A stretch of 64,000 nt of DNA from Anaerolineae bacterium (GTDB lineage: Bacteria > Chloroflexota > Anaerolineae > Epilineales > Epilineaceae). The DNA lies in contig JAJCYU010000008.1 of assembly GCA_029262755.1 (NCBI GenBank), forward strand, positions 114-64,113. The letters are read 5' to 3'. The translations under genes and the position numbers were made by a program. The notes beneath the pieces were generated by a model, which was not told the origin of the DNA, searched no databases, and worked only from the letters and a program-made list of their open reading frames with translations. Below, piece after piece: positions 2,795-12,054 of the stretch; position 1 is the first letter of the stretch; the number at the start of each line of letters is the position of its first letter.

Positions 2795-4858
2795 ATGCGC
2801 ATCGTGCTCGCCGACACGCTGGCCCAGAGTCTCGAAGCACTCGACAAGTCCGTGCGAGGGCTGGTCAAGCGGAAGGTCTTCGATTTCCAACTCGCGCCGG
2901 CCACATCCGGCAAGAGCTATCACCGCATCGATAAGGCACCGCAGCAAGGCTTCTGGTCCTTCCGCGTCAATCGCGACCTGCGATTGGTCGTCTTTCAGGA
3001 GGGCGACCTACGTGTCCTGTGCCACGTCGCCCACCATGACGACGCCTACGAATGGGCGATGCGTCACCGCTACGAGGAACACCCCAACACGACCGAGATC
3101 CAACTCGTGCGCATCGAGAAATCCGTGCGCGAGGTGATCGAGCGGCGGGTGAAGGTCATCGAAGAGTTGCCCCCCCTCTTCACGAAGCATACCGATGATT
3201 ATCTACTTGCCCTCGGCGTTCCGCCTGTCTGGTTGGACGCCATCAAGCTGGTGACGGAGGACACCCTTCTGGAAGCGCTCGACGAATTGCCCAGCGCCGT
3301 AGCCGAGCGTCTGATGCGGCTTTACGAAGGCAAGCCGGTGCCCCGCCCGGTGATCGCCGCGGGAGCGACGGGCTGGGATCACCCCGACACCGCACGCCAC
3401 TTCCGGGTACTGGGCTCCGAGCGCGAGTTGCAGCAGGCGCTGGAGTTCCCATGGCAGAAGTGGATCGTCTTCCTCCATCCCGAGCAGCGCAAAGTGGCCG
3501 AGCGCACCTTTTCCGGATCGGCTCTGGTGACGGGCGGCGCCGGCACGGGCAAGACGGTGGTCGCGCTGCACCGTGCACAACACCTTGCCGAGGCCAATCC
3601 GAACGCGCGCATCCTGCTGACGACGTTCTCGCGCACGCTGTCTGCAAGCCTCGAGCGCAACGCCCGGGTGCTGATGGGTGAGGACAGCCCGCTGTTGGAC
3701 CGCATTCACGTGGCCAACGTGCATCGCTACGCCGTGGAGGCCTACGAGGAAGCGCACGGCGCAGGACCGCATCTGATCAACGACCAGTCGCTCCAATCGC
3801 GGCTAGCCTCGATCTCGGGCCGGCTTGGATTCGACGAGTTCCCCCTCGACTTCATCGAGGCCGAATGGTGGAACGTCATCGATGCTTGGGGAATCCACGA
3901 TTGGTCGAGCTACCTGACTTTCGCCCGGGTTGGCCGCAAGCAGCGGCTGGGCGCCCGTCAACGGCAGCGGATGTGGCGTGTCTTCGAAGCGATGCTGGGC
4001 GAGTTGCGCGCTGACAACCGACAGACCTACAGTGCGCTTTGCGACACATTGCGCCGTGATGTTGAACATGGCCTAGTGCCCCGCTTCGATCACGTCGTCG
4101 TCGATGAAGCTCAGGACTTTGGACCGGCCGAGCTGCGCCTGCTACGGGCGCTCGTGCTGGAGGGGCCGGACGACCTCTTTCTGAGCGGTGACGCCGGGCA
4201 GCGCATCTTCCAGAGCCGCTTCCCGTGGCTGGCCGCCGATATCGACGTGCGCGGCCGATCGAGCACACTGCGTGTCAACTATCGGACCACCGAGCAAATC
4301 CGTCGCTTCGCAGACCGCATGCGCTTCGTCGTGCACGACGAGGCCGACCCGCTATCGCTTGACGAGGGCGCCGTGTCGCTCCTCGGTGGTCCTGAGCCGA
4401 CACTGATCGGCGCCGACGACAAGGCGGGGGAGATATTGACGCTGTCCACTTGGCTGGAAGAGTTGCTCCAAGACGGCTACCAGCCCGAAGACGTGGCCAT
4501 CTTTGCCCGCACCAAGAAGGTCCGCGACGAGCGGGGGCGCCCGGCCATTGAGCGCTCTGGCGCCCGTGTGCATGAGCTCAACGACGATCGCGAGCCGGAG
4601 GCAGGTTGTGTTTCGCTAGGCACGATGCACCGCGCCAAGGGCCTCGAGTTCAAGGCCGTGGCCGTCGCCGGCTGCGACCGGCGGATGCTGCCGCAGGCGT
4701 GGTTAGCCGAACGCATCGGTGACGCGGCCGAGCGCGAAGCCTTCATCGAGCGCGAACGACACGTCTTCTATGTGGCCTGCACCCGGGCACGCGAGCGGCT
4801 GCTGGTAACGTGGGTCGGGGAGGGGAGCGAGTTTCTGGAGGCAGTAGAACGGGATTGA
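2795..4858 (+). CDS. UvrD/PcrA-like SF1 helicase with an N-terminal RelE/ParE-toxin-like domain (~100 aa)
   Basis: Walker A VTGGAGTGKTVVALHRA, Walker B VVVDEAQDF, NYRTTEQI, GTMHRAKGLEFKAVAV and FYVACTRARERLLVT. The N-terminus VNRDLRLVVFQEGDLRVLCHVAHHDDAYEW follows the RelE/ParE sequence pattern. The ATG lies 4 nt after the upstream stop, with a GGAGG-like site inside the upstream gene's 3' end. Confidence 0.8.
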   Translation: MRIVLADTLAQSLEALDKSVRGLVKRKVFDFQLAPATSGKSYHRIDKAPQQGFWSFRVNRDLRLVVFQEGDLRVLCHVAHHDDAYEWAMRHRYEEHPNTTEIQLVRIEKSVREVIERRVKVIEELPPLFTKHTDDYLLALGVPPVWLDAIKLVTEDTLLEALDELPSAVAERLMRLYEGKPVPRPVIAAGATGWDHPDTARHFRVLGSERELQQALEFPWQKWIVFLHPEQRKVAERTFSGSALVTGGAGTGKTVVALHRAQHLAEANPNARILLTTFSRTLSASLERNARVLMGEDSPLLDRIHVANVHRYAVEAYEEAHGAGPHLINDQSLQSRLASISGRLGFDEFPLDFIEAEWWNVIDAWGIHDWSSYLTFARVGRKQRLGARQRQRMWRVFEAMLGELRADNRQTYSALCDTLRRDVEHGLVPRFDHVVVDEAQDFGPAELRLLRALVLEGPDDLFLSGDAGQRIFQSRFPWLAADIDVRGRSSTLRVNYRTTEQIRRFADRMRFVVHDEADPLSLDEGAVSLLGGPEPTLIGADDKAGEILTLSTWLEELLQDGYQPEDVAIFARTKKVRDERGRPAIERSGARVHELNDDREPEAGCVSLGTMHRAKGLEFKAVAVAGCDRRMLPQAWLAERIGDAAEREAFIERERHVFYVACTRARERLLVTWVGEGSEFLEAVERD

Positions 4859-4906: not shown

Positions 4907-6058
4907 CTACGAAGCGACCTGTAGAGCCTCCAACACAATGAAGCCGTCGATGGCAGCGCTCTCCGGAAGGGCACGCACCTGCTCGTCGAGCTCCATGGGT
5001 CGAACGTTGTGTTCGGCCATCAATTCGTACTGAAGTGCATATCCTTCAAGCACGCCGGCGCGCGCAGTTAGTCGGTTCATGAACGGGACGACCACGTCCA
5101 AGTCTCGCTGTCGTTGCTCGGCCGGCGAAGGCGCCGTGAACCGGTCCCGAATGCGTGACGCCGATAGGGCTGCGCGTGCCTTGTGGACATCCTCGAATTG
5201 GGGCTTGCGGATCGTTCGCTCGTCGTAGTAGGGGCCAAGCTCGCGCCGAAGGTCGTCCAACCGATCGCTCGCGTGATCTGAGTCCTCGTTCGCGAAACTG
5301 AGCCAAGCCGACAGGGTTGTTAGAGATACAGAGTCCACAAAATCGGCGTGCAGGAAGCGATGCGGTTCGTCGCCTAGCAGCAGATCGTTCGCAAAGCGCC
5401 TGGTATGGTCGCGCCACACCTCAATTCCGTCGGCGAGCTCGGAGGCCGCAAGGTTCATTGAGCCCATGTCGGCTTGACAACGGGCGAGGCCGAGTAGGGC
5501 GATGCAGAAGATCTGCTCGTTGGCGTCTGCCACGGTGATCTCCTCGGAATGCGCCAGCGCGTTGCGGTATTGGTGCGTCTTCACCGACAGATCGCGATAG
5601 GCATCCACCAAGACCTCTCGCTGGGCATCACCGTCCGCCATCTGAACCACCTTGGCCACTCGCTCCAGCGCGGCGTGCAGCTCCGCTCGCTCGCGGCGTT
5701 CGAGCAATTCGCGGATGGCTCTGACGTCGCGCGCGACAGATTCAAGGCGCTTCTCTAGCCGGTCCAACATCACGAACAGGGTCGAGAACCCTACGGCCGA
5801 GACGGCCAGGTTGAGTGCGGAGAAGGCCATCGTGGCCTGCATGCCTTGGAGGAGGAGAGGGGCGGATGCCGAAAGACGCGCCAACTCAGCTTGTTGTGGA
5901 ATCACCAGGTGGCGCACGATCTGACCGGCTCCCTCCTCTCCGGCCGCTCGGCGAACGACACCGCCGAGTACGGTGCACCGACGTGCATCTACGCAGGGAA
6001 GGACGTCGAGGGGCAGCGAACGCATGACGTTCATGCCGAGGATGCTCGAGTCGATCAT
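4907..6058 (-). CDS. Hypothetical protein with one predicted TM helix (AFSALNLAVSAVGFSTLFVML) followed by a coiled-coil-like region; start may instead be at 5842
   Basis: Long ORF, hydrophobic segment, no recognisable catalytic motifs. Sits on the same strand downstream of the two PD-(D/E)xK genes. Confidence 0.5.
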   Translation of the reverse strand: MIDSSILGMNVMRSLPLDVLPCVDARRCTVLGGVVRRAAGEEGAGQIVRHLVIPQQAELARLSASAPLLLQGMQATMAFSALNLAVSAVGFSTLFVMLDRLEKRLESVARDVRAIRELLERRERAELHAALERVAKVVQMADGDAQREVLVDAYRDLSVKTHQYRNALAHSEEITVADANEQIFCIALLGLARCQADMGSMNLAASELADGIEVWRDHTRRFANDLLLGDEPHRFLHADFVDSVSLTTLSAWLSFANEDSDHASDRLDDLRRELGPYYDERTIRKPQFEDVHKARAALSASRIRDRFTAPSPAEQRQRDLDVVVPFMNRLTARAGVLEGYALQYELMAEHNVRPMELDEQVRALPESAAIDGFIVLEALQVAS

Positions 6059-6227
6059 GGGAAGGCCCTCGATAGGTATGACGTTGAAGAATCGACGCGG
6101 TAGGCCCCACGGTGGGGCAGGGCTTGCAAGCGCTTATCCACGCACGTGAAAAACGTTGAAGTTCAACCACCCTAGCACAGCCCAATTGGCCTGCGCCACC
6201 AGTGTTCTGCTCGCTGATCCATCGGAC

Positions 6228-7067
6228 CTACACAGGGTGCACGTGCTCGATGACATGCACTGCCAGCGTGTTGCGTACCGGAACCAGTTCGTTGGGCAAG
6301 GCTCCTTCGAGCACAAGGGCCGTCTCGACCCCGGTGTCCCTTCCAAGAACCGCGAGCTCTGCCTTCAGCACCGCAGCGTACTTCACACACTGGAACAGTC
6401 CACGTAAGAGGTCAACGGTGGATGCATTGCGTGCCTTGACCTCAACGGCGAGCCAAGTGGCCGGTCCGCGGAAGAGCACGTCAATCTTGTCGGCCGACGG
6501 TAAGCCGTACTCGATCTCGCTGTCGACTCCGTGGGCAAGGCCAACGACCTTCGAGTGCGCCGCCACAAACTTTTTTAGCCGAAGGTGGAGTTCTCCCTCT
6601 CCGCCAGCACGATAGCCGCGTACACGCTCTAGAAGACTGGATGGGACGGCCGGCGGTGCATCCTCAAGATCGAAGTGCGAGAGCACTTGCGGCCAACGAG
6701 AGTAGGCGAAGATCTGGGACCAGAAAGCTAGAGCGAGCTTGCGTTTCGCTCGTAGGGAGCGCGATGCGTAGTCGGGCACGTTTAACGGGTATCCAACGAT
6801 TCCCTCACCTGGCACGCGAGTTTCCTTGCTGACGACAAGGAACTGTATCGGTGGGATCTCCGTTCCCCATCGATCACCTAGCGCGGTGAGATCCCATCCG
6901 ATGGCGCCGAGCACGTAGTTCAGATTGCGTGCGTTTGGCATTCTCAACTCTTCAGCCAAAGCGGAATATGTGATGGGCTGCTCGGCGTGGGCCTGACGCA
7001 CGAGGAGCGGAAGCGCACTACGGGCGCGCCGTTGGTAAAGTTCGTCTCCCTGCATAGTTTGAGCCAT
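6228..7067 (-). CDS. PD-(D/E)xK nuclease-fold protein (restriction-endonuclease-like), otherwise hypothetical
   Basis: C-terminal motif IDVLF...WLAVEVKARN...QCVKY gives D…EVK. Strong RBS GGGAGGAGG before the ATG at 7067 (MAQTMQGDELYQ). The ORF extends to a GTG at 7106. Confidence 0.6.
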   Translation of the reverse strand: MAQTMQGDELYQRRARSALPLLVRQAHAEQPITYSALAEELRMPNARNLNYVLGAIGWDLTALGDRWGTEIPPIQFLVVSKETRVPGEGIVGYPLNVPDYASRSLRAKRKLALAFWSQIFAYSRWPQVLSHFDLEDAPPAVPSSLLERVRGYRAGGEGELHLRLKKFVAAHSKVVGLAHGVDSEIEYGLPSADKIDVLFRGPATWLAVEVKARNASTVDLLRGLFQCVKYAAVLKAELAVLGRDTGVETALVLEGALPNELVPVRNTLAVHVIEHVHPV

Positions 7068-7112
7068 GCGCCTCCTCCCGTGGACATGATGTAGTGAACC
7101 TGGCACGGCAGA

Positions 7113-8555
7113 TCAAACTCCCAGTGGAGCGACTCCCAGCCGCCGATCCCTCGCGTCGCGAATCTCGCACACAGTCTCATGCAGCACGTCGGCCTTCGGC
7201 AGGATCTCGTCGCCGTGCAGCCTCAGCGCCGGTTTCAGCTCATCGACGTACGTGGCGAACACGCGGCAGCCTTCCGGTGCGGCGATGATGAACGAGGCCG
7301 ATCCGACCTGCAAGGCGTAGGAACGGCCTTGCATCGCAGCGTCCTTCCAGTCCTCGCGGCGCACGAGGGAGTGCTTGGCCTCCACGATGGTCAGCAGCCG
7401 GCCTTCGCCGTCGCGAACCAGGTAGTCGATCCGGCCTAGGATGCGCTGCGAGCCGAGTCGGAACTCGCAGGCGTGTTCGCGAATCGAGCGCCCGCCCATT
7501 TTCTTGAGCACGCCTTCGAGGCAGTCCTTGCAGAAGGCGTCCTCGTCCGGATAGTCGCCCGCACGACGAATTCGGTCGAAAGCCGCGGCAGCCACTGAAG
7601 GGGTGGCCGTCTCCGATGGGCTTTCACCTTGCAGCAACTCATGAAGTCGTACGCGCATGCGCGGCGGGATCGACTCCGCTACCAAGCCGTTGAATCGTGA
7701 CTTGACGAGGCCCCATTGCGCGAGCACCTCGTCGGCCATCATCTCCGCGAAGGTCAAGTGACCTGAACTATCGACACGCCGAAGGTCCACGTTGCACGCA
7801 CGCCACCGCGCTAGCGGATCGATGCCGGGCAACCCATCCACCTCAAACACATCGGTGATCGCCCGAGTGTCTGCCATCCGGTACACGTAAACCTTTTCGC
7901 CCGGCGCCATCTCCATTCGCCCAGACCAGGTGACCGTCTCGTTCTCGAGCTCCGCGTAGTCACCCGGCTTGCAGGCAACTAGCCACGCCCGCTCGCCGTC
8001 GCCGCGCCGCACGTGCAGCGGGATCAGGTCGTCGTAGAGGAAGCGCCAGAGGCGAAACTGAAGCTCGAAGCGATCTCGCGGACGCTTGAGAAGAGTGCCG
8101 ACTGAGGTCCGGCGCGGCCACCACTCCTCCGCCAACTCAAAGAGTGCGTCACCGATTTTGCGCCATCGGTCGAGAGCGCGCTGTCCGCTGCCGAAGGCAT
8201 GAAACGAAAACGCGAGACGCGGTTCTGCGGCGCTAAGGAAGGCGAGTCCATCGAAGAGCTCGCGGTCGTAGTACGGCGCGCGCCACAGAAGGAAGTGGTC
8301 TGGATGGGCACGCGCCAACATCGCGGTGGACTCTACGAGCTTGCCGCGAAGTGTCTTGCTGCGGCGCACGCGACCGTAGGCCGTCGCGGGTGTGTCACGG
8401 TCCAGGTTGGCCAGGACGCGTGGCTTCCTCTTGTAGCCATATCGGATCTGGTCGACCAGTGCCCGCGGCTCGATTCGCCGGAAGCGCTCGTACGACGATA
8501 GATCCGCCTCGGCCGCTCGGGCGATGAGGCGTTCGAGCATGACGTTGGCGTTCAT
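7113..8555 (-). CDS. Hypothetical two-domain protein: central possible PUA-like (EVE/ASCH-type) barrel plus C-terminal PD-(D/E)xK nuclease domain
   Basis: GRIDYLVRDGEGRLLTIVEAKHS gives D…EAK. The central segment WLVACKPGDYAELENETVTWSGRMEMAPGEKVYVYR is EVE-like. RBS GGAAGGAG lies 8 nt before the ATG at 8555 (MNANVMLERL). Confidence 0.6.
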   Translation of the reverse strand: MNANVMLERLIARAAEADLSSYERFRRIEPRALVDQIRYGYKRKPRVLANLDRDTPATAYGRVRRSKTLRGKLVESTAMLARAHPDHFLLWRAPYYDRELFDGLAFLSAAEPRLAFSFHAFGSGQRALDRWRKIGDALFELAEEWWPRRTSVGTLLKRPRDRFELQFRLWRFLYDDLIPLHVRRGDGERAWLVACKPGDYAELENETVTWSGRMEMAPGEKVYVYRMADTRAITDVFEVDGLPGIDPLARWRACNVDLRRVDSSGHLTFAEMMADEVLAQWGLVKSRFNGLVAESIPPRMRVRLHELLQGESPSETATPSVAAAAFDRIRRAGDYPDEDAFCKDCLEGVLKKMGGRSIREHACEFRLGSQRILGRIDYLVRDGEGRLLTIVEAKHSLVRREDWKDAAMQGRSYALQVGSASFIIAAPEGCRVFATYVDELKPALRLHGDEILPKADVLHETVCEIRDARDRRLGVAPLGV

Positions 8556-9089: not shown

Positions 9090-9953
9090 TCACGGGCCGG
9101 GGAAGGCAATCAGTGCATCTCCGATGGGATAGGCATCGTCCGGACATGAATCGCCGTAGAATAACGGGTCGCCCCACTCGGTATCCGCTGTCCATTGGAA
9201 CGGACCCTTCAGGCGCGCTAGCCGGGAGCGTGGAACCGTGACAGTTAGAGTCTGGCCGTCGACGACGGGCCCTACCAGATCGAATGACTTCGAGGCAACA
9301 AAGTCGAATATGGCCGCGTACCAGTTTGCTCTGATCAACTCGGCGCTGATCGTGTAAAGGGTTCGATCTTCGTAAACAATGCTCGCGCCCCAAAAGTACG
9401 CGTCGAACTCAGACCCTAGCACGCTGGAGTCAGACGGGATTGGGCCTACGGCATCAAAGGCCACCTTGAGGGAGTTTCCGTCGGCTTCGAGGCGTACGGC
9501 TTGCAAATCGAGCCCAGGAATGGGGTCGGGCGGAGCGGTGCCATCCCCATCGCCCGTGTCGCCCACGCTGTCCGAGCAGACGGCTGAACCCTTGAACGTG
9601 AACTCTTGCGCCGGAGTGCGTTGCCTCTGCGTTGTGGAAGTTGGTGTTCGAGGTGTCTTTGTGGGCGCATCGGATTCCGCGTCCGAATTGCTCGAAGCCT
9701 CGGCGGCCGATTCGGATGGGGTAGCGGTGTGGGTGACCGACGCCCCCGATCCTTCGCTAGCCGCCTGCGGAGTTGACGTTGCTGCGCGGTCACCGTCGTT
9801 GTCCGAGGGAAGCGACTGCACTTCACCGCACGCTCCACAGACTGCGAAGGGAGCCAGGCCCGCCAGAACCAGCACCTTCCGCCAGCCGCGTCCGCGACTA
9901 CAGGCTGGAATGCCATTCTTGGGTGCCAAAGTGTCGCCCGTGCCACTTCTCAT
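9090..9953 (-). CDS. Secreted or lipoprotein-like hypothetical protein with a Ser/Thr/Pro/Asp-rich linker and a C-terminal globular domain
   Basis: Signal-peptide-like VLVLAGLAPFAVCGAC followed by a low-complexity ST-rich region. The start codon is uncertain. Confidence 0.5.
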   Translation of the reverse strand: MRSGTGDTLAPKNGIPACSRGRGWRKVLVLAGLAPFAVCGACGEVQSLPSDNDGDRAATSTPQAASEGSGASVTHTATPSESAAEASSNSDAESDAPTKTPRTPTSTTQRQRTPAQEFTFKGSAVCSDSVGDTGDGDGTAPPDPIPGLDLQAVRLEADGNSLKVAFDAVGPIPSDSSVLGSEFDAYFWGASIVYEDRTLYTISAELIRANWYAAIFDFVASKSFDLVGPVVDGQTLTVTVPRSRLARLKGPFQWTADTEWGDPLFYGDSCPDDAYPIGDALIAFPGP

Positions 9954-10159
9954 AAAGCCTTCTCCCCATAGCCTCTCGGTTGCCGCGATGAGTAATGATC
10001 CCCTCAATCGCAGCCCGCGCAAGGCTGTCGTAGAATCGGCGGTAGGGTCGGTAAGTGCACACCACCCTCCTGACCGAGCCGCATCTCGCTCGGTGTAGGA
10101 GCAGAGGCGAGATGCGACCGTCTAGAACGAATCCAGCCCGGCCCAGATAATGGAACAAG

Positions 10160-10785
10160 GTGTCCACTCGGCTGTACCACCTCACCCATGGCAGCAACCT
10201 GGCGGCGATCATCGCGCAGGGTGGATTGCGCTGCAAGCGGCAATTGCGGGAGGCCAACGTCGACCATCGAGACGTCGCGCGGCGCCCCCTGCAGGAGAGG
10301 AGATCCACCAGGCAGGTTCGTAAAGGGCCTGGCGGCACACTCCACGATTTCGTGCCTCTCTACTTCGCGCCGCGACCGCCCATGCTTTACGCGCTACTCG
10401 ATCCGAAGAGGCCAGATGGTCCTGTCGACGAACGCGCGATGAACTATCTGGTCACCGACACAGACATGGTCGAGCGTCACGAGCGACCCTTCGTCTTCAC
10501 CGATGGCCACGCGGTGATGGGGTTCACGCAGTTCCACAACAGTCTTGATGAACTGCCTCTGCTGGACTGGGAGGTCATTGAAAGCAGAGACTGGGCGGAC
10601 ACTAACGACGATCCGGACCGAAAGCGACGCAAGCAAGCCGAATTCCTCATTGCCGAGGAGGTTCCCTGGGCGATGATTCAGGAGATGGAGTCTTCGATGA
10701 GGTTGTCGAAGCCCGCGTTCGCGAGATCGTGCGCCAGGCCGGATCGGATCACGAGCCGACGGTACGCGTGCAACCCGGCTGGTAA
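10160..10785 (+). CDS. darT: DarT (DUF4433) ssDNA thymidine ADP-ribosyltransferase toxin with an apparent 1-nt frameshift near 10679–10689 (pseudogene or sequencing error)
   Basis: N-terminus VSTRLYHLTHGSNLAAIIAQGGL is the DUF4433 signature. Frame A runs through EFLIAEEVPWAMIQ. A second frame then reads GVFDEVVEARVREIVRQAGSDHEPTVRVQPGW*, which matches a DarT C-terminus. The span is 626 nt, one short of 3n. GTG start. Confidence 0.75.
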
Positions 10786-10808
10786 TATCATGTTGGAGGG
10801 AGGTCCCG

Positions 10809-11870
10809 ATGATCGAGCTTGGACGTGGCAACATTCTAGAGGTCGAAGCCGAGGCGCTCGTGAACACCGTCAACTGCGTCGGTGTTATGGGCAAGGGCAT
10901 CGCTCTGCAGTTCAAGCGGGCCTTTCCGCACAATTACGCTGCCTACCGGAAAGCGTGCGACGCAGGCGACGTCGCCCCTGGACGAATGCACGTCCATGCG
11001 ACGTCATCCTTGGTCGGGCCTCGGATCATCATCAACTTCCCGACGAAGCGCCACTGGCGCAATCCTTCTCAACTGGACGACGTCACGGAAGGGCTACGCG
11101 ACCTCGTCTGGATCGTGCGGGAGCACGGGATTCAGTCGATTGCGGTACCTCCGCTCGGATGCGGCAATGGCGGCCTTGATTGGGCGCAGGTGGAACCGCT
11201 CATCCGGAAGGCGTTCGAGCCGCTCGAAACAGTGCGCGTCATTCTCTATACGCCTGGTTACGCGCCCAGCGCGCGCGAGCGCCGACCGGCGCCCGGAGCG
11301 TGGAAGTGGACACCTGCCCGATCGCTGATGGTGCAGCTGATGGATGCTTACCGTCAGGGCGAGTACCGACTAAGCCTGCTTGAGATACAGAAACTCGCCT
11401 ACTTCATGCAGGAGGCGGGCGAGCCGATGAAGTTGAACTTCGTCAAGGCCGTGTACGGGCCGTACGCGGACAACGTGAGCCACCTGCTCCAGTCGATGGA
11501 AGGCCACGCGATCGATGGGGCAACAGACGAGCGGTCACCCGAAACGGAGATCGGGCTGCTCGAAGGCGCGGCCGAAGAGGCCCGCGACTATGCGATCGAT
11601 TCGTCTACGGTGGGCAGGCTCACTAGGGTGCTCAGCCTTATCGAAGGCTTCGAGACGCCGTATGGGATGGAGCTGCTCGCTTCGGTGCATTGGGTAGCGC
11701 GCGAGAGCGTGACCCACGAGAGGCCGTTGAATGACGATGCGCTTGTTCAGGCTATTCACGCCTGGAACGAGCGGAAGCGTCGATTGCTCAAGCCGGAGCA
11801 CATTCGCGTTGCGGCGAAGCATCTGCGCGCTCATGGTTGGATGGGCCAGTCATTGGCCGTGCCGGCCTAG
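10809..11870 (+). CDS. darG: DarG antitoxin (N-terminal macrodomain, ADP-ribosyl-DNA glycohydrolase)
   Basis: ILEVEAEALVNTVNCVGVMGKGIALQFKRAFP is a macrodomain signature. GGAGG RBS. Position is immediately after darT. Confidence 0.85.
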   Translation: MIELGRGNILEVEAEALVNTVNCVGVMGKGIALQFKRAFPHNYAAYRKACDAGDVAPGRMHVHATSSLVGPRIIINFPTKRHWRNPSQLDDVTEGLRDLVWIVREHGIQSIAVPPLGCGNGGLDWAQVEPLIRKAFEPLETVRVILYTPGYAPSARERRPAPGAWKWTPARSLMVQLMDAYRQGEYRLSLLEIQKLAYFMQEAGEPMKLNFVKAVYGPYADNVSHLLQSMEGHAIDGATDERSPETEIGLLEGAAEEARDYAIDSSTVGRLTRVLSLIEGFETPYGMELLASVHWVARESVTHERPLNDDALVQAIHAWNERKRRLLKPEHIRVAAKHLRAHGWMGQSLAVPA

Positions 11871-12054
11871 GAGTGGTCATCGGCCCTGCGCGCCCCCGCC
11901 GACAGATCAATCCGACACGCCTCCAGAACCTCCGCCAAGAACGACTCTTCCAATCCCACGGTTCTCGTCTAGAAGTCCATGAGCTCCTTCAGCGGGGTTG
12001 CCCGAAGACCAGCCGGTAGGCGACCAGGCTTTGATTGAGCCGCACGATAAAAAT

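Follow-up and report, generated by a model that had tools for sequence, protein, structure and literature searches.

Three neighbouring genes of an Anaerolineae defence island, encoding a predicted Type IV restriction enzyme, a solitary nuclease of an unnamed family and a JukB-like protein, probably work independently

Three adjacent genes on the minus strand of a 64,000-nucleotide stretch of an Anaerolineae bacterium genome (contig JAJCYU010000008.1; the whole stretch is called the window here) raise the question of whether they constitute one defence system or several. An initial annotation, made by reading the sequence alone, had described these genes, which we refer to as A, B and C in their order of transcription, as a single three-gene cassette. 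The three minus-strand open reading frames (ORFs) that it listed are indeed present (Table 1), with A being read from an ATG, although a GTG three codons upstream is also possible as a start. Regarding their relationship we arrive at a different answer. We consider it likely that A, B and C are three defence-type genes that lie stacked next to each other yet function independently, in an island of low guanine-plus-cytosine (GC) content, with A being a Type IV restriction enzyme, B a solitary nuclease and C a JukB-like protein. Tight clustering on one strand of a defence island need not mean that the clustered genes form one system.

The evidence that carries this reading comes from the loci in which homologues of the three genes occur. 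A tblastn analysis at E<=1e-3 found neither A nor C in 80 loci that contain B. The six A-family loci contain neither B nor C, and the ~37 C loci (31 metagenomic and 6 others) contain neither A nor B. The phyletic and contextual distributions of A, B and C are thus independent of each other, and the single A-B-C cassette is contradicted by the co-occurrence check, since the genes were not found together elsewhere. This indicates that A, B and C do not make up a single system. Each protein also has a predicted architecture of its own, in the form of either a complete sensor plus effector or a stand-alone effector.

Table 1. Coordinates of the three genes, their predicted domains and the neighbouring defence genes in the window.
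Feature	Position	Strand	Remarks
Gene A	7113..8555	-	480 aa from ATG; predicted EVE–PD-(D/E)xK Type IV restriction endonuclease
A, helical N-domain (residues 1-185)	8001..8555	-	conserved in the ~450-aa full-length subfamily (alignment)
A, predicted EVE (PUA-like) modified-base reader domain (residues ~186-305)	7641..8000	-	Pfam and profile matches of relatives
A, PD-(D/E)xK nuclease domain, HsdR-N type (residues ~330-445)	7221..7568	-	E338, D377, E392-x-K394, Q409, Y413
Gene B	6228..7067	-	279 aa; winged-helix plus NucS-like PD-(D/E)xK nuclease, unnamed family, stand-alone
B, winged helix-turn-helix domain (residues 1-135)	6663..7067	-	possibly MGMT/ATL-like
B, PD-(D/E)xK nuclease domain (residues ~155-279)	6231..6605	-	H161, K165, E186, D196, E209-x-K211, Q226, K229, Y230
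Gene C	4907..6058	-	383 aa; JukB-like, one hydrophobic helix; predicted membrane-active effector
C, JukB-homologous N-terminal half (residues 1-155)	5594..6058	-	motif GGV[VI]R...G..[AG]GQIVRHL, hydrophobic helix, coiled-coil-like helix
DruE-like (Druantia) helicase, C-terminal 918 aa	35..2791	+	truncated by the window start; MZB/DUF1998 zinc domain
UvrD/GajB-like superfamily 1 helicase	2795..4858	+	Pfam and PADLOC matches; converges on C
DarTG toxin-antitoxin defence pair (darT apparently frameshifted)	10160..11870	+	Pfam DarT 7e-48; PADLOC DarG 2e-126
TIR–STAND NTPase–TPR protein, 948 aa	13037..15883	-	PADLOC TIR-family matches, E ~1e-11

Among the three proteins C had initially been left without an assignable match, which proved not to be so. 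Specifically, C matches the PADLOC model of JukB (PDLC04114) with an E value of 2.5e-16, and the same model is matched at 1e-11 to 1e-23 by homologues of C, five retrieved in the protein search and one from Candidatus Chlorohelix. In the JukAB system, which acts against jumbo phages, the sensor JukA recruits JukB as the effector, and an R31A mutation inactivates JukB (bioRxiv 10.1101/2022.09.17.508391). Tetrameric pores have also been reported for JukB (PMC13282480). The likeness extends over the N-terminal ~150 positions of JukB, which C and all of its relatives match and which include the Arg/Gly-rich motif given in Table 1, invariant in the alignment of the C family, as well as a hydrophobic helix. 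This helix, the sole one of its kind in C, spans residues 78-98 (Kyte-Doolittle mean of 1.77 over 19 residues) and is followed by a charged, coiled-coil-like helical stretch, which agrees with the single transmembrane helix and coiled coil that had been ascribed to this protein. The C family is also rare, as is JukB, and no member was found in IMG/VR. By virtue of the N-terminal half that it has in common with JukB, C may act as a membrane-active effector, and pore formation would be in keeping with this role.

There are also several differences from JukAB. For example, the C-terminal ~230 residues of C are unmatched, some C homologues reside within helicase/methylase operons that are Druantia/DISARM-like, and no gene for JukA (a YaaW/DUF3944 plus Cbp3-like protein) or YaaW adjoins C in the window or in the examined C loci. 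Neither A nor B has a JukA match in PADLOC, and tblastn with E. coli YaaW as the query revealed no JukA in the window or in 39 C loci (E>0.6 in the window and the first 8), a search that has little power when a family is divergent. If C has a partner at all, this would more likely be the adjacent helicase module or a sensor encoded elsewhere.

An alternative is that C works with the convergent module of DruE-like and UvrD-like helicases instead of with A and B, as a JukB-like membrane effector that a helicase sensor recruits or triggers in a Druantia/DISARM-like variant. The closest C homologue (54% identity, L010) is located 150 nt directly downstream of a co-directional UvrD-like helicase gene (L010 2-1297) whose product is 34% identical to that of the window. 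Moreover, a plasmid of Ca. Chlorohelix allophototropha (NZ_CP128401.1; L112 2871-16748, L114 620-6176) contains a C homologue inside a tight operon that codes for a DruE-like helicase (1690 aa), the JukB-like protein (389 aa), a DpdE/DrmD-like SNF2 protein (981 aa), a four-helix bundle protein and a DrmMI-like N6-methylase (1399 aa). The gaps that flank the JukB-like gene in this operon are just 42 nt and 1 nt, and the DruE-like helicase is 32% identical to that of the window. This operon, in which the JukB-like gene is embedded, is thus a hybrid of Druantia/DISARM-like type. Downstream of it are genes for a 1293-aa protein with an EVE domain and for a DUF2357 protein, which are likely a putative EVE-McrB/McrC pair. 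The same type of SNF2 helicase is also encoded upstream of the C homologue at a further locus (L125). However, a helicase neighbour, whether DruE-like, UvrD-like or SNF2, is present in only 4 of the ~37 C loci, and C of the window is on the strand opposite to the helicases, converging on the UvrD-like gene across a gap of 48 nt. The remaining C loci have unrelated neighbours or, in a marine subclade, a gene for a membrane protein, and in defence islands that are rich in helicases such an adjacency can arise by chance. We thus regard participation of C in the helicase module as possible yet doubtful, and continue to favour C as a gene that works on its own. The finding that JukB-like genes occur without JukA, with some of them inside Druantia/DISARM-like helicase operons, nevertheless suggests that a pore-forming JukB-like module is common to several systems.

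The membrane protein of the marine C subclade (L129, L131, L132, L133, L135) is a conserved ~428-aa protein whose gene always follows after ~100 nt in the same orientation. It contains a membrane segment at its N-terminus and a 'DLNKDGKVNFDDL' motif that resembles an EF hand, and may be an alternative partner of C-like proteins.

We regard B as the more valuable lead, as it is found in more than 400 species, on plasmids and in prophages, and yet is unnamed in four libraries. Direct scans of A and B against Pfam, NCBIfam, PHROGs and the PDB gave nothing usable, and family-level profiles were required. Specifically for B, no library match was obtained in Pfam or PADLOC (E<=0.1), in NCBIfam or PHROGs (E<=0.5) or in a PDB sequence search. 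Homologues of B nevertheless populate >1,272 clusters, and relatives, all of them 41-50% identical to B, are present in 417 of 185,579 GTDB species from >10 phyla that include Pseudomonadota, Bacteroidota, Planctomycetota, Acidobacteriota, Verrucomicrobiota, Cyanobacteriota, Chloroflexota, Myxococcota and Gemmatimonadota. This distribution is patchy, and within Pseudomonas it is strain-variable. The AlphaFold model of B, built with 30 sequences, has a pLDDT of 94.1 and a pTM of 0.89, and in it a winged helix precedes a NucS-like PD-(D/E)xK nuclease. Thus, B represents a widespread and confidently modelled nuclease family for which Pfam, NCBIfam, PADLOC and PHROGs provide no name.

The second PD-(D/E)xK motif that had been noted in B is real, as residues E186, D196, E209, K211, Q226, K229 and Y230 do not vary among 30 family members. 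By structure, B comes closest to NucS/EndoMS, a nuclease of DNA repair, and to XisH. Sub-threshold Pfam matches among 120 members are to Tox-REase-9 (28 members), NucS_C (5) and XisH (3). The N-terminal winged helix is also highly conserved, with motifs that comprise Y34, P44-N-x-R47-N-L-N, P72-P-I-Q75, K81 and P86-G-x-G89.

When analyzing the surroundings of B, no recurrent neighbour was observed in the 80 loci. The 136 ORFs nearest to B include housekeeping genes, integrases, GmrSD, AlwI, C5 and N6 methylases, PtuA-like ATPases, MADS and SspE, with serine recombinases or integrases nearby in ~12 of the 80 loci. Homologues of B also reside on 10 IMG/VR contigs and 7 plasmids, and on a plasmid from Chryseobacterium two Abi genes and a restriction endonuclease gene are followed by a B homologue. 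We conclude that B is a solitary, horizontally spread nuclease.

In its mechanism, the winged helix of B would select the DNA substrate and the NucS-like PD-(D/E)xK domain would cleave it. Because no cognate methyltransferase accompanies B, its target would most likely be modified, damaged or otherwise non-self DNA, as with Type IV enzymes. The architecture of B resembles that of winged-helix modification-dependent restriction endonucleases (Mrr; DpnI/FcyTI; HtuIII), which likewise combine a small DNA-reading domain with a nuclease and lack a methyltransferase (bioRxiv 10.1101/2023.06.07.544091). B differs from these enzymes in that its winged helix is N-terminal and its nuclease is closest to NucS and Tox-REase-9. 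No sequence match of B to Mrr_N, Mrr_cat, DpnI or EndoIII was observed; Mrr_N and Mrr_cat were absent at E<=0.1 for B and also from the families listed at E<=10 for its 120 relatives, so that with Mrr only the overall architecture is analogous. Three relatives of B (P0013, P0053 and P0077; 416-430 aa) have an additional ~130-residue N-terminal domain that looks EVE/PUA-like, with sub-threshold matches to Pfam EVE in P0053 (E 0.0029) and P0013 (E 0.24). These extended relatives would have a PUA-winged helix-nuclease architecture, echoing PUA-winged helix-HNH enzymes such as HtuIII. If B does restrict modified DNA, then it would constitute a new widespread single-gene defence system and a new type of modification sensor.

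The winged helix of B may furthermore be an inactivated base-flipping reader of the MGMT/ATL type that has lost its catalytic cysteine, in which case the reader domain may derive from alkylation-repair proteins. Three weak signals of the MGMT/Ada DNA-binding domain are observed in this region. An hhalign comparison of the N-domain with a four-sequence alignment of Ogt, Ada, Atl and human MGMT gave a P value of 1.5e-4 and a probability of 51%, and greedy extension of this alignment keeps the MGMT register, with Y34 of B placed on the flipping Tyr and 'IPP' placed on 'IPC' of the PCHR site. Pfam DNA_binding_1 is weakly matched by 5 of the 120 B members (best E 0.018), and the B profile retrieved no MGMT, DpnI or Mrr chains from the PDB. 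On this reading Tyr34 and Arg47 would be retained in B and the active-site Cys would be replaced by Pro. The PCHR cysteine thus has no counterpart in the aligned I-P-P-I-Q, in which P72 is invariant and P73 is at least 90% conserved. If the winged helix is related to MGMT at all, then it is at best an ATL-like, non-catalytic reader. We therefore put forward only tentatively, as an improbable although attractive idea, that the B family is a large and unrecognised group of solitary defence nucleases in which a dead MGMT/ATL winged helix detects alkylated or hypermodified foreign bases and directs a NucS-like nuclease to them. END nucleases consist of an inactive EndoIII and a nuclease (PMC12191111), so that B, if derived from MGMT/ATL, would follow a parallel logic of a dead repair-derived base reader joined to a nuclease, and would be the second independent case of this kind.

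The same signals have a bearing on whether B is instead an accessory nuclease of DNA repair or recombination, either an enzyme akin to NucS/EndoMS or an excision factor resembling XisH, with a winged helix that reads lesions or specific sites in host DNA. The structural matches to NucS/EndoMS and XisH are what such a role predicts, as are the MGMT/Ada-like signals, the many housekeeping neighbours and the recombinases or integrases close to B. An identity of 41-50% across phyla, with dozens of invariant residues, is also unusual for a defence gene. However, B does not have the N-domain and the PCNA-binding tail of NucS. The winged helix stands in place of the β-rich N-terminal DNA-binding domain of NucS, with no match to NucS_N in B and no pairing of NucS_N with NucS_C. 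The distribution of B, unlike that of NucS/EndoMS, is patchy and tied to mobile elements, with carriage on plasmids and viral contigs and in one case beside Abi genes. Defence genes are also among its neighbours, B of the window is in the middle of a defence island, and the EVE-like extension of three relatives is likewise at odds with a repair function. Weighing these points we consider a role of B in repair or recombination unlikely, and retain its assignment as a solitary defence nuclease.

In regards to A, both the C-terminal PD-(D/E)xK motif and the PUA-like central segment that had been proposed hold up when its family is considered. A search of 5.8 billion clusters recovered only two close homologues, which are 52-54% identical to A. 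An HMMER scan with a three-sequence profile expanded the family to 289 representatives at E<=1e-3, and these fall into ~450-aa full-length relatives with 25-31% identity, 500-550-aa proteins in which only residues ~188-440 are in common, and proteins that have only the nuclease domain in common with A. Pfam EVE is matched by 30 of 50 family members (best 5.3e-14), with the matches mapping to A residues ~186-305, so that the segment 'WLVACKPGDY...' is the start of the EVE domain. The A-family profile also matches solved EVE structures, namely Rpa0253 (2gbs; 1.3e-7), Atu2648 (1zce; 1.2e-5) and PH1033 (2.5e-3), with A on its own being below the Pfam EVE threshold.

For the nuclease domain, Pfam HSDR_N is matched by 9 of 50 A relatives, the family profile has a weak match (E 0.071) to the N-terminus of a type I R subunit (3h1t), and A alone has weak PDDEXK_1 and Cas4 matches. 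The catalytic columns are well conserved, with D377 invariant in 50 of 50 sequences and E392, K394 and Q409 at least 90% conserved in the same set, and with E338, E392, K394 and Q409 invariant in a 17-sequence subfamily. Residues 1-185 are predicted with low confidence to be all-helical and have no match in Pfam, the PDB or PADLOC. Given the EVE and HSDR_N family matches and the conserved catalytic columns, A is predicted to join three domains, the first helical, the second EVE and the third a PD-(D/E)xK nuclease of the HsdR-N type, with profile and fold evidence in agreement. The EVE–nuclease combination is the architecture, typical of Type IV enzymes, that the initial annotation had recognized, and the assignment of A as a Type IV modification-dependent restriction enzyme is well supported at the level of sequence. 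The nuclease domains of A and B were also compared as possible recent paralogues, which was rejected, as their catalytic register aligns while the match is not significant (P 0.24).

Bell et al. 2020 (PMC7641849) list EVE–PD(D/E)XK proteins among the putative Type IV restriction enzymes, and EVE-HNH enzymes cut DNA that contains 5hmC or 5mC (PMC6765204), with VcaM4I and TspA15I having been characterised (PMC6765204, PMC7897488). A differs from VcaM4I and TspA15I in having a nuclease of the HsdR-N type rather than HNH. Relative to EVE-nuclease Type IV enzymes in general it has an additional ~185-aa N-terminal domain, giving the order N-helical, EVE, nuclease, and it is rare, with just the two close homologues. 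By analogy, the EVE domain of A may flip a modified base (of the 5mC or 5hmC type, or another) out of invading DNA and bind it, upon which the C-terminal HsdR-N-type domain would cut nearby using D377, E392 and K394; the helical N-domain would probably serve in oligomerisation or regulation. A is thus a divergent three-domain addition to the EVE-nuclease Type IV enzymes, a group of value as defence genes and also as reagents with which DNA modifications can be mapped. A distant relative, P0210 (1089 aa), combines an Eco47II-like nuclease and an AAA_5/nSTAND3 NTPase with two stretches that resemble EVE, and the EVE module of the A family is therefore also part of much larger NTPase-nuclease proteins.

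Across the six homologous loci that make up the A-family context there was no recurring partner, and among the neighbours of A in the window (B, C and a 310-aa ORF) there was no methyltransferase-family match. A TPMT-like methyltransferase, which is of an unrelated small-molecule type, is encoded downstream of the A homologue P0002. Other A-family loci are located beside UmuD/UmuC-like genes, a flavoprotein gene, or type I restriction-modification and AbiEii genes. At one of these (L106 3542-7348) the A-family gene is directly followed by UmuD-like (Peptidase_S24) and UmuC-like (IMS) genes, and at another (L108/L109 1-850) it is a few kb from a gene for DNA polymerase III alpha (DnaE2-like). 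This adjacency to SOS and translesion genes may be coincidental. A's nearest relative, P0003 (54%), is translationally coupled to a 398-aa HNH-domain protein, with the stop of the former overlapping the start of the latter (L005 377-3018); this partner nuclease differs from B, the one that is present in the window. The closest homologues of A and C, each of 54% identity, also come from the same metagenome (ERZ23498389 / SRR16631311), where they are on different contigs (L005 and L010).

Several of these results, together with the layout of the genes, weigh against three independent genes of the kinds that we propose. Missing partners could lie off-contig, since many of the A and C loci are short contigs. 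In the window A and B are probably co-transcribed, as they share a strand with only 45 nt between them, and the coupling of P0003 to an HNH protein means that a partnership of A with a second nuclease is conceivable. Turning to the individual assignments, the matches of the C family to JukB are mostly confined to model positions ~10-155 of 323, amounting to only half of the model, and the predicted model of A is of low confidence (pLDDT 47). The three weak signals described above are the whole basis of the MGMT/ATL assignment of B, and the conservation of B across phyla has already been mentioned.

Some of these same points would fit a single restriction system in which A reads modified bases, B cleaves, and C acts as a scaffold or an abortive-infection effector. 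A, B and C are all on one strand with a short A-B gap, their common lower GC content (0.59-0.63) suggests a joint acquisition, and coupling to another nuclease does occur in the nearest relative of A. Set against this are the B loci that contain neither A nor C and have no recurrent neighbour, the A-family contexts without B and C, and the metagenomic and other C loci without A and B. The B-C gap of 169 nt and the self-contained architecture of each protein also disagree with a joint mechanism. A single system is therefore very unlikely in our view, and three independent genes are the reading that we retain. A Shine-Dalgarno-like site is located 5-8 nt 5' of each ATG (GGAAGGAG for A, GGGAGGAGG for B and GAGGG for C), and scans of the locus for sigma-70-like promoters and intrinsic terminators gave none above the shuffled expectation. 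Finally, a housekeeping role for A, B and C was rejected on account of their patchy distributions and their mobile or defence contexts.

The surroundings of A, B and C are a defence island that includes the DruE-like and UvrD-like helicases, DarTG and the TIR-STAND protein. The DruE-like helicase matches PADLOC DruE3 at 2.5e-57 as well as Pfam Helicase_C and MZB. GC content is 0.62-0.67 in the part with the two helicases (1-5 kb) and 0.59-0.63 over ~5-12 kb, which covers A, B, C and DarTG, and near position 12000 it steps sharply to 0.69-0.75 onward. The low-GC block beside the higher-GC core on the right suggests an island that was acquired by a higher-GC genome.

Additional observations were made on the neighbouring genes. 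Between A and DarT there is the 310-aa ORF (9090-10022, minus strand), which has no family match and is separated from the start of A by a 535-nt non-coding gap. Its N-terminus is hydrophobic and Cys-containing (…LAPFAVCGACG…) and it also has a Ser/Thr/Ala-rich low-complexity stretch, features with which it may be a lipoprotein. Within the toxin-antitoxin pair, darT (10160-10810, plus strand) precedes darG (10809..11870, plus strand) and appears to be frameshifted near 10690; the Pfam DarT match ends at profile position 168 of 201. The ORF past the frameshift runs 370 nt into darG as an out-of-frame Arg-rich sequence, and a plausible DarT C-terminus (…VFDEVVEARVREIVRQAGSDHEPTVRVQPGW*) is found in another frame, so the gene is either a pseudogene or affected by a sequencing error. 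The UvrD/GajB-like helicase of the window has an additional N-terminal region of ~220 aa, in which residues 17-74 show a weak likeness to the RelE/ParE-type toxin YoeB (PDB 8yxv, E 0.29).

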